From: Escherichia phage vB_EcoP_IMEP8
Sequence record: NC_070993.1
Strand: one strand, 5' to 3'
DNA length: 64,000 bases
Within the stretch, counting starts at the first letter, position 1. Each line of letters starts with the position of its first letter. The notes below the pieces were generated by a model. It ran no database searches. It saw nothing but the letters and a program-made list of their open reading frames with translations, and was not told where the DNA came from. Both the position numbers and the translations under genes were made by a program. This document shows, in pieces, positions 54,339 through 56,448 of the stretch.

Positions 54339-56369
54339 TTAACCTCTATTCAATGAACATTTAGGAGAATTACAATAAACTTGATTCATAGAACCAAGCG
54401 TACAACTTTCAGCATCGCGCCACGGAATCTGCTTAAAACACTCTGAACAGTAGCCGAGGGTTGACCACATTGCTTTGGTGAAGTCAGTGCTTCGGTTTCC
54501 GTCGAAGCTGACGACAGTTTTGCGGAGAGCTGTTCGTGATTCAGGAAACACACCTGCTTTCTCAGCAGGTTCCTCCTTTTTTGGCTTAGTTGAGATTGCA
54601 AAAATACTGTTGCTACGTTTCTCAACATAAGCATCAACAACATCCTCCAGAGTGATGCCTGTCTGTTTCGCTGAGGAAGGTAATATAGTCATACGACCAA
54701 TCATTTCTTCAGTTACACGTAAAGCAAACTCAGGACGACGGGCGTTTGTTGTATCTGTTGCTTTAATCCATACATAACCATCTTTGATCGTAGCATTAGA
54801 TACTTTCTTCTTTACTTCTACAGCGCAGACTTTACAGATATCTTCACCACGAAGACGACTAAGTTCATCATCGAACTCATTCTCTGTTTTAACTTCACCG
54901 CAGATTTCACAAACACCAATAGGAGTTTCCTCCTCTTCTTCCTCTTTAGGTTTAGTCAAACCTTCCAGACATTCAGGATGCCAGTAGCACTGATATGCGA
55001 AGACTGCTTTAGGTGCATCCTTCCAATCAATGTGCTTGTCACAACCACCACAATCACCATGAGAATGAGCTTCCCAGAATTTACGAGTGATAGTAACGCC
55101 ATTCTTGTTGACGAAACTATCATTCATATCAAAAGGGATATCATCATCGAAGTCAGCAGTAGTTGACTCAGGCTCCTTTTTCTCCAGAGATGGGTCAACA
55201 AAACGACCTGCTGTGATCACTAAACGGACCATAGCATTGACTTCGGAGATGCAGGATACTGTCCCACGGTAAACAATTTTAGGGTCTTTCAGTGCATCCT
55301 GATAAGCCTTAATGTCTACATTATGAACATCACCTTCGATATACTCTTGAGACTTCTCATCGTAGATATAACCGATCATCTTACCACGAGAAGGAACAGC
55401 ACCAGCAGTTGCATAAGGAACAAACTCATGCGGAGTGATTTCCACAGTCATATCGCGGCGAATATCAATGTTTCGATCGCTTGCGATTTTGTTTTGACTT
55501 ACCACTGCGTTTCTTCGACGAACGTCTGCCGCTGTCACTCCCGGCTTCGTGTCGTAAGGATTGCTTGTATTGCTTTTTGAGGAACTTTGATAGTTGCTTT
55601 GGCTGTAGTTGTTCGAGTAGTAATTGCCCCAACGATTGATTACCGTAAAAACCGGAAGCTCGTGGGCGACCTCTTCAACCAGAGTCATGCTGTTGTTTGA
55701 CATATCAAAGATATACTCTGTACCAACTTTACATTCAAAATGCTCGTCAATACGATTCTTGTGAGATCTAGAACGCTTCAGAATCCACATCAACATATCT
55801 TCTTCAGAAGCACCAAACCAATCTCTATTACAGCGTGCGAGATGGAAAGGACGCTCTTCATTACGGATGATATGAAGACGGTTATCAGAAGCATCATGCC
55901 AGATTAAGGTGAAAGCACCATCCAGCTTTTGAATAGTCTCTGCTGCACCAATAGTGTTAATAGAGTGGCAGATGTTCTCACTGTCTACCTCGAAGTTTTT
56001 GCTGTCAGGTAACAGGTCTTGGTCCATCAAGGTTCCGTTATGAACCAGAGTGATGTTACCATGTTGGAAAGGATGGGCGTTCTTGGCGTTAACTGCACCT
56101 TTCGTTGCATGACGGCTGTGACCAACAATCCATGAAGGTGCTACAGTGTAAGCTGTTTCACCAGTGGTGTGTTTCTTGTACTCATCTTGTAGGATGAATG
56201 CGAAAGAAGGAAGAGCTTCTTTATAAGTGAAGACTTCCTTAGTGCTTTTACGCTGACCAAAGATACCGGAGGAATGTTGTCCTCGGAATACTCCAGCATA
56301 AAAGAGTTGGTTGAATACGTCTAAATCAGTGCTTGACAGATTACCGCCAGCTAATACGATGCCACAAAT
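54339..56369 (-). CDS. class-II (Ntn-hydrolase) glutamine amidotransferase-like protein fused to a Cys-rich C-terminal domain; probable non-AUG (AUU) start (about 676 aa)
   Basis: Upstream extension of the track ORF reads ICGIVLAGG...FRGQHSSGIFG, the Cys-1 Ntn GATase N-terminus (compare PurF MCGIVG...QHRGQDAAGI); in-frame TAG two codons before the Cys and no ATG/GTG/TTG in between. Confidence 0.7.
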   Translation of the reverse strand: MCGIVLAGGNLSSTDLDVFNQLFYAGVFRGQHSSGIFGQRKSTKEVFTYKEALPSFAFILQDEYKKHTTGETAYTVAPSWIVGHSRHATKGAVNAKNAHPFQHGNITLVHNGTLMDQDLLPDSKNFEVDSENICHSINTIGAAETIQKLDGAFTLIWHDASDNRLHIIRNEERPFHLARCNRDWFGASEEDMLMWILKRSRSHKNRIDEHFECKVGTEYIFDMSNNSMTLVEEVAHELPVFTVINRWGNYYSNNYSQSNYQSSSKSNTSNPYDTKPGVTAADVRRRNAVVSQNKIASDRNIDIRRDMTVEITPHEFVPYATAGAVPSRGKMIGYIYDEKSQEYIEGDVHNVDIKAYQDALKDPKIVYRGTVSCISEVNAMVRLVITAGRFVDPSLEKKEPESTTADFDDDIPFDMNDSFVNKNGVTITRKFWEAHSHGDCGGCDKHIDWKDAPKAVFAYQCYWHPECLEGLTKPKEEEEEETPIGVCEICGEVKTENEFDDELSRLRGEDICKVCAVEVKKKVSNATIKDGYVWIKATDTTNARRPEFALRVTEEMIGRMTILPSSAKQTGITLEDVVDAYVEKRSNSIFAISTKPKKEEPAEKAGVFPESRTALRKTVVSFDGNRSTDFTKAMWSTLGYCSECFKQIPWRDAESCTLGSMNQVYCNSPKCSLNRG

Positions 56370-56448
56370 TTTCTAATCCACCTGAAGGGTAAACCCTTTC
56401 ATCTAATTAACCTTTAAATTGTGCCCCTTTACCAGAGGCACCCATTGA

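Follow-up and report, generated by a model that had tools for sequence, protein, structure and literature searches.

The stretch of DNA analyzed here, 64,000 nucleotides of Escherichia phage vB_EcoP_IMEP8 (NC_070993.1) and hereafter called the window, carries on its minus strand a gene for a class-II, or N-terminal nucleophile (Ntn), glutamine amidotransferase in which the codon before the catalytic cysteine is ATT. Our comparisons indicate, with a probability that we put at about 0.8, that translation starts at this AUU (56369-56367), that the initiating methionine is then removed, exposing the cysteine as residue 1 (Cys1), and that the weak codon is under selection. By sequence, the window is that of a phiEco32-like Kuravirus (97–99% identical to the phiEco32-like coliphages of this genus) and the gene is the homologue of phi32_83 (gp83). 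The single fact of an ATT start is not new, as the phiEco32 record already has it. In the literature that we searched, we found no earlier description of what accompanies it: AUU and AUC starts that recur among the homologues and are linked to a strong Shine-Dalgarno (SD) sequence and a covarying hairpin.

Reading of the start site

On the minus strand, the start region reads CAGGTGGAT TAG AAA ATT TGT GGC ATC GTA TTA GCT GGC GGT, and the protein continues after its start residue with CGIVLAGG. Re-reading this strand confirmed two statements of a first-pass annotation of the window, namely that the frame TAG-AAA-ATT-TGT has no canonical start upstream of 56030 and that an SD-like AGGTGG lies about 8 nt 5′ of the ATT (56383-56378). 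Two of its details are corrected here: position 56030 belongs to a TTG (56030-56028) and not to the ATG that it had placed there, which is the following codon (56027-56025), and the codons between the TAG and this ATG number 115 rather than 113. It also overlooked an in-frame ATG (56402-56400), which opens a mini open reading frame (mini-ORF) of nine codons (MKGFTLQVD) ending at the TAG that it had noted.

Downstream of that TAG, the amidotransferase frame contains no ATG, GTG or TTG before the TTG at 56030-56028, which is followed directly by the ATG. The first canonical start is thus 113 codons 3′ of the ATT, beyond Cys1 and beyond the HNG oxyanion motif (N110-G111). The window has 44 stop-to-stop frames of 150 codons or more, and this one alone among them has more than 30 codons before a canonical start (its value is 114); a mechanical ORF list gives 54339..56030, or 563 amino acids, in place of the 676 of the full frame. 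Because the frame is closed by a stop two codons upstream of the ATT, no alternative start can give a protein with Cys1. Maturation by proteolysis from another start, which the first-pass annotation had offered as an alternative, finds no such start in the frame.

That a class-II amidotransferase should have its cysteine at residue 1, also claimed at first pass, agrees with the position of the TGT directly after the only possible start and with the invariance of C1. The protein matches Pfam GATase_6 at 55 bits (cut-off 27) and GATase_7 at 27.4 bits (cut-off 25), and it matches phrog_4736 (E 1e-201); in three PHROG profiles the cysteine aligns to position 2, the residue after methionine. In an alignment with 12 phage homologues, some with as little as 32% identity, C1, G2, R28, G29, H83, R85, N110, G111 and D128 are invariant. 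The glutamine-binding and oxyanion residues R85, N110-G111 and D128 are conserved and align with GlmS 69-132, and the GHxRxAT...HNG segment aligns, in weak matches, with the solved structures of GlmS and PurF over the catalytic motifs. A single-sequence AlphaFold model had a mean predicted local distance difference test score of 33.8, too low to use for the four-layer alpha-beta-beta-alpha Ntn fold.

The ATT start is already present in public records. In those of phiEco32 (GenBank EU330206; RefSeq NC_010324), phi32_83, a 'glutamine amidotransferase', occupies 54493..56523 and opens with this ATT. Its 2031 nt equal the length of 54339..56369 in the window, its leader is identical over 41 nt, and there is no difference at the start site. 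Among the 128 coding sequences (CDS) annotated in phiEco32 (112 ATG, 13 GTG and 2 TTG starts), it is the single one with ATT. The Bas88 and Bas90 records likewise start the gene at the ATT. Those of EK010, KBNP1711, BUCT695 and FBPa8 (L004, L005, L007 and L017 in our locus list) start it at a downstream ATG, 10 to ~50 codons inside, and the deposited proteins are without Cys1. Gene finders limited to ATG, GTG and TTG cut off the catalytic nucleophile, and the same mis-call probably affects about one-fifth of the genes in this family of phage enzymes.

Conservation of the ATT and of the N-terminal codons

Could the ATT be an ATG altered by an error of sequencing or assembly, as had been considered at first pass? 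ATT starts are rare, and no other point speaks for an error. Against it, 67 of the 97 phage records that contain the region are 100% identical over the 41 nt around the ATT, which has been read in independently sequenced genomes. For the remaining genomes we read directly representatives from Suseptimavirus, Nieuwekanaalvirus and Aeromonas phage BUCT695, that is, from two other genera and one other family, and all keep the ATT; in unrelated metagenomic lineages, this position is occupied by ATT or ATC. These comparative data already refute the error explanation, and on the sequences at hand it is excluded.

It might also be supposed that the amidotransferase domain is not expressed, translation starting at TTG 56030 or ATG 56027 and the 114 codons upstream being a decaying remnant, as the truncated calls of mechanical ORF finders and of several GenBank records would have it. 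However, over exactly those 114 codons, from Cys1 to the last codon before the first canonical start, comparison with KBNP1711 gives a nonsynonymous divergence (dN) of 0.147 and a synonymous divergence (dS) of 1.61, or dN/dS 0.09; compared with ECBP2, dS is saturated. All catalytic residues are kept, and the frame is open in ~97 genomes and in distant relatives. Judged by this pattern of substitution, purifying selection on the N-terminal 114 codons is strong and, since dN/dS is ~0.09, these codons are translated; we regard a silent domain as extremely improbable. The start codon itself is conserved among diverged orthologues, ATT being kept despite a coding-region dS >1.6.

The AUU start at 56369-56367 proposed in the first-pass annotation thus draws support from the catalytic cysteine, the selection on the N terminus, the conservation of the ATT, the GenBank records and the relatives described next.

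AUU and AUC starts across homologues

We tabulated the codon before the cysteine in homologues from GenBank phages and from three scans of IMG/VR (best 80 per scan). The first scan, seeded with a broad alignment, together with 12 GenBank picks gave 92 loci, with 75 ATG, 13 ATT, 3 ATC, 1 TTG and 0 GTG; two tblastn offsets and L049, all with ATG starts, are counted under ATG. All scans, of which the second and third were seeded from selected clades, gave 160 non-redundant loci, with 116 ATG, 27 ATT, 9 ATC, 7 TTG and 1 GTG after correction of two mis-assignments and with L049 again counted as ATG. The distinct leaders number 148: 32 AUU/AUC, 107 AUG and 9 others.

At nearly all AUU/AUC loci, no canonical start occurs between the upstream in-frame stop and the cysteine, and the first codons vary synonymously (TGT/TGC, GGT/GGA/GGC, CTA/TTA/CTC), as expected of translated codons. 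In most homologues the cysteine codon is preceded by ATG (ATG-TGY), and distant relatives carry this ATG at the exact position of the ATT. In a neighbor-joining tree, the AUU/AUC loci are spread over at least five separate places, with switches between ATT and ATC inside clades and with ATG sisters.

In the Paundecimvirus-like phages PA11 (L100), L101 and FBPa8 (L017), the proteins are ~91% identical and the starts are TTG, ATC and ATT, all weak. The leader of Pseudomonas phage PA11 differs, having TGGAGGTG and no hairpin.

A strong Shine-Dalgarno sequence and a hairpin accompany the weak start

The leader features of the window are listed in Table 1. Its predicted local fold leaves the SD, the spacer and the start codon unpaired. 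The leader block (~50 nt) is 100% identical in the Suseptimavirus and Nieuwekanaalvirus relatives, while the flanking coding DNA is 50-80% identical with dS >1.6. Aeromonas phage BUCT695, which belongs to another family and whose protein is 53% identical, has 2 changes in the last 45 leader positions; its hairpin is kept, with the only change in the loop. Compared with the nearest ATG-type relatives (GAP52, 7-11, Cs009 and two IMG/VR phages), the ATT-type leader has a 16-nt insertion that supplies the 3′ arm of the hairpin and a new SD, the old SD (AAAGG) being the 5′ arm. By alignment and predicted folds, these nearest ATG relatives are without the hairpin.

Hairpins equivalent in place, with other stem sequences, occur in other AUU/AUC lineages. 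Counting as a hairpin any perfect stem of 5 bp or more with the end of its 3′ arm 11-17 nt before the start, we found one in 19 of the 32 distinct AUU/AUC leaders, where dinucleotide shuffles gave 1.8 ± 1.4 with a maximum of 8, and in 3 of the 107 AUG leaders, where 4.3 were expected by chance. The stem sequences are unrelated between lineages (AAGGG, AACCTC, GAACCT, GCCCT, GAGGTC, AAAGCC, GTAGCC, ACGACA, AATGC, GACTC, CCGTA, AGACTAA and others). MAFFT misaligned 2 of 10 hairpin segments, and covariation was therefore counted on eight sequences, chosen as hairpin bearers: in these in-register hairpins, all 6 pairs have changes on both sides, and pairing holds in 93.8% of cells as against 61.5% in shuffles. 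The SD is also stronger, the median duplex energy being -7.3 kcal/mol for AUU/AUC and -5.9 kcal/mol for AUG (Mann-Whitney p 1.5e-7), and the modal spacing of the AUU/AUC class is 7 nt.

A stop triplet directly after the SD (GGA-TAG/TAA) was also tried as a feature specific to this class and rejected, as it is equally common in ATG genes.

Table 1. Features of the phi32_83 homologue, its leader and the adjoining gene, in window coordinates
Feature	Position	Strand	Remarks
Full CDS, phi32_83 homologue	54339..56369	minus	ATT start, 675 further codons and TAA stop; from translation
Class-II (Ntn) glutamine amidotransferase domain	55617..56366	minus	~residues 1-250; Pfam GATase_6 and GATase_7; alignment
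TTG-ATG, first canonical starts in frame	56025..56030	minus	False start of ORF finders; 563-aa product without Cys1
TGT, catalytic Cys1 codon of the Ntn amidotransferase domain	56364..56366	minus	Invariant alignment column; PHROG profile position 2
ATT, probable initiation codon AUU	56367..56369	minus	phiEco32-like genomes keep ATT; distant homologues have ATG there
Invariant leader block TTAAAGGTTAATTAGATGAAAGGGTTTACCCTTCAGGTGGATTAGAAAATT	56367..56417	minus	Local conservation peak
In-frame TAG two codons 5′ of the ATT	56373..56375	minus	Also the mini-ORF stop
Mini-ORF ATG AAA GGG TTT ACC CTT CAG GTG GAT TAG	56373..56402	minus	In frame with the gene; spans hairpin and SD
Shine-Dalgarno AGGTGG (AGGTGGA if extended to 56377)	56378..56383	minus	7-8 nt before the ATT; anti-SD duplex -7.0 kcal/mol
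Hairpin AAGGG-TTTA-CCCTT	56385..56398	minus	Ends 1 nt before the SD; local fold prediction
Upstream gene, Amidoligase_2 protein (phi32_84 homologue)	56449..57552	minus	Ends 79 nt before the ATT

Alternatives raised by the mini-ORF

Given the mini-ORF, one possibility is that the gene is reached by termination and reinitiation: ribosomes would translate 56402-56373, stop at the TAG and restart 3 nt on at the AUU, codon choice being laxer on restart. The AUU would still be the start, but supplied with ribosomes by the leader peptide instead of by de novo binding of the 30S subunit. In favor, the mini-ORF shares the frame of the gene, runs across hairpin and SD and ends 3 nt before the ATT; AAGG lies 8 nt 5′ of its ATG; and all phiEco32-like phages, like BUCT695, retain its ATG and TAG. 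Short ORFs ending 4-7 nt before the start are also found in other AUU/AUC lineages (L063, L086, L101, L126 and L133). However, no comparable mini-ORF exists in the AUU/AUC lineages L017, L068, L078, L096, L106, L116, L141 and L144, and BUCT695 is without an SD before the mini-ORF ATG. Since both BUCT695 differences in the mini-ORF are non-synonymous and the coliphages are without any synonymous variation, the constraint looks to be on the RNA or DNA and not on a peptide. Few genes of the AUU/AUC class are tightly coupled to a long upstream gene, 3 of 32 compared with 46 of 107 for AUG; with only these 3, such coupling was rejected as a general cause of AUU/AUC starts. Restart after the mini-ORF is possible in the phiEco32 lineage but not general, and we consider it an unlikely account of the start.

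Some Ntn amidotransferases mature through propeptide removal, and an alternative is that ribosomes read through the amber codon from ATG 56402 and that a 12-residue propeptide (MKGFTLQVD-X-KI) is then removed autocatalytically, as in Bacillus subtilis PurF. The TAG and the gene share the frame of this ATG, and TAG ends 0 of the 39 large ORFs in the window (33 end in TAA and 6 in TGA). Across the whole phiEco32 genome, however, TAG ends 14 of the 128 annotated CDS, mostly small ones, and is for this reason an ordinary stop. A tRNA gene search of the window found none, hence no suppressor tRNA. Most other AUU/AUC lineages are without an in-frame upstream ATG, the SD spacing fits the ATT and not decoding through it, and the ATG homologues place their ATG directly before the cysteine, without a propeptide. 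Read-through with processing is therefore very improbable, and direct initiation at the AUU is the reading that we adopt below.

Other features of the leader and its surroundings

Searches of the leader for known elements were largely negative. An Rfam scan at a permissive E-value gave chance-level matches only, a promoter and terminator search found none on the coding strand, no copy of the phiEco32 gp36 promoter element tAATGTAtA lies near the start site, and the leader motif occurs as a single copy in the window. The fold of the 86-nt leader is not significant (z -1.2). A sigma-70-like match (TTGACA, 16 nt, TACGAT) lies at 56333-56360 on the plus strand, antisense to the first codons, and an RNA begun from it would be complementary to the leader; one such match is the number expected from shuffles, and its -35 part is not kept in EK010. 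In Grimontviridae and related homologues (L008, L010, L012, L025, L027 and L007), the motif TTTAAATGTAA occurs 20-45 nt 5′ of the start and resembles the gp36 promoter element; the aligned TTTAAAGGTTA of the window (~56408-56418) does not match it.

Directly 3′ of the amidoligase stop codon, at 56421-56441 on the minus strand, is a hairpin, GTGCCTCT-GGTA-AAGGGGCAC, followed by AATTT. The WFI101126 record has a terminator annotation within the same 801-nt query stretch. In Suseptimavirus, this stem reads GGGCGC...GCGC and is changed on both sides, next to the invariant leader.

In BUCT695 (L007), two short ORFs of 29 and 43 amino acids lie at 2804-3005, between the amidoligase and amidotransferase genes. 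By eye, a CWLWTG...GYP motif is visible in one and a helix-turn-helix-like tail in the other, making them a candidate for a broken HNH homing-endonuclease gene. The phiEco32-type leader follows directly after them. Since the BUCT695 protein groups with that of GAP52, an ATG-type relative with no hairpin, sequence comparison suggests a transfer of the leader and the 5′ end of the gene by recombination.

The neighbors of the amidotransferase gene encode an Amidoligase_2 protein (PF12224), a COOH-NH2 ligase type 2 (PF14395) and a RimK-like ATP-grasp protein, assigned by Pfam and PHROG in the order of phi32_80-87; the ATP-grasp Pfam matches (PF08443 and PF07478) are below their cut-offs. The C-terminal ~425 residues of the amidotransferase (54339-55616, minus strand) are without a Pfam match and contain several CxxC...CxxC clusters that resemble zinc ribbons, among them CGGCDKH...CYWHPEC, CEICGEV...CKVC and CSECFKQ...CNSPKC. 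A scan of bacterial species genomes (n=185,579) returned 7 loci, mostly on phage-sized contigs of metagenome-assembled genomes; because these few appear to be phage contigs, the family is, as far as such scans can tell, essentially phage-borne.

Discussion

How would a ribosome select this AUU? We envision that the AGGTGG(A) SD, 7-8 nt upstream of the codon, places the 30S subunit and that the hairpin abutting the SD keeps the SD, spacer and start codon single-stranded. The initiator fMet-tRNA would then read the near-cognate AUU, and deformylase and methionine aminopeptidase would take off the methionine, exposing Cys1 as the catalytic N-terminal nucleophile. In this arrangement, it would be the strong SD and hairpin that ensure ribosome binding despite the weak codon.

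Initiation at AUU, AUC and AUA occurs at 1-2% of the level at AUG, and a protein initiated at AUC has methionine at its N terminus (10.1101/063800). The weak codon is most likely held by selection to keep synthesis of the enzyme low or tied to the initiation state of the host. It is conceivable, if doubtful, that the hairpin, strong SD, 7-nt spacing and AUU/AUC codon together form a module dedicated to translational control, acquired repeatedly by phage Ntn-amidotransferase genes, that makes enzyme synthesis depend on host initiation fidelity (through IF3 level, guanosine tetraphosphate [ppGpp], nutrients and temperature), the invariance of the leader reflecting binding of a specific factor. 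If true, such a module would be a phage counterpart of the infC sensor, for a glutamine-consuming enzyme.

Several points weigh against our interpretation. Data on the N terminus of this protein, or from toeprinting, ribosome profiling or reporters for this gene, were not found in the literature searched. The seeds of scans 2 and 3 came from clades rich in AUU/AUC, so that the overall share of such starts is inflated; the unbiased share is for this reason nearer 15-20%, ATT or ATC being present in 15 of the 80 IMG/VR loci of the unbiased first scan. The group statistics for SD and hairpin treat the loci without correction for phylogeny, and the eight sequences of the covariation set were picked for having a hairpin. 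Single hairpins are no more stable than shuffles (z -1.5 to +0.1); the case for the hairpin rests on its position, recurrence and covariation. Finally, every base of the 50-nt leader is fixed, beyond the needs of hairpin and SD. Since this base-by-base invariance exceeds what the two require, the leader would have some further function, which could lie in a protein-binding site, the mini-ORF or a DNA-level signal.

The recurrence of AUU and AUC starts across lineages, with ATG sister genes as controls, offers a natural system for the study of near-cognate initiation. The usual company of a strong SD and a hairpin at the weak starts speaks for a regulatory design that can be tested, and not for drift. 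Our literature search found no paper on AUU or AUC starts in phage amidotransferases, the text of the 2008 phiEco32 genome paper lying outside that search. The single ATT start leaves the known picture of how initiation works unchanged.

The phage enzyme shares with class-II amidotransferases of the PurF, GlmS and AsnB type the CGIV N terminus, the RGxxS(T)G, GHxRxAT and HNG motifs, the Asp of VDS and the need to expose Cys1. The cellular enzymes expose it after an AUG-encoded methionine or through propeptide cleavage. The phage protein differs in its acceptor domain, which is a Cys-rich region instead of a phosphoribosyltransferase, isomerase or synthetase domain.

AUU starts are confirmed in E. 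coli for infC and pcnB only (10.1101/063800). The infC start, AUU or AUC, is the target of IF3 autoregulation, and mRNAs led by AUU are sensitive to IF3, ppGpp, nutrients and temperature (PMC5499595). As in the phage genes, the near-cognate codon of infC is conserved in orthologues with interchange of AUU and AUC (PMC5499595), initiation is SD-dependent and the weak codon is functional. The infC codon, however, senses its own product, whereas the phage product is a metabolic enzyme, so that any dependence on IF3 would read the state of the host. We know of no SD-adjacent hairpin in the infC model. The pcnB gene, which encodes poly(A) polymerase, compares with the phage gene in its inefficient AUU, which limits an enzyme that is harmful in excess (10.1101/063800). 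The start of pcnB varies among AUG, GUG and UUG in other phyla (10.1101/063800), whereas in the phage amidotransferase genes AUU/AUC appears repeatedly, in many lineages, along with a strong SD and a hairpin.

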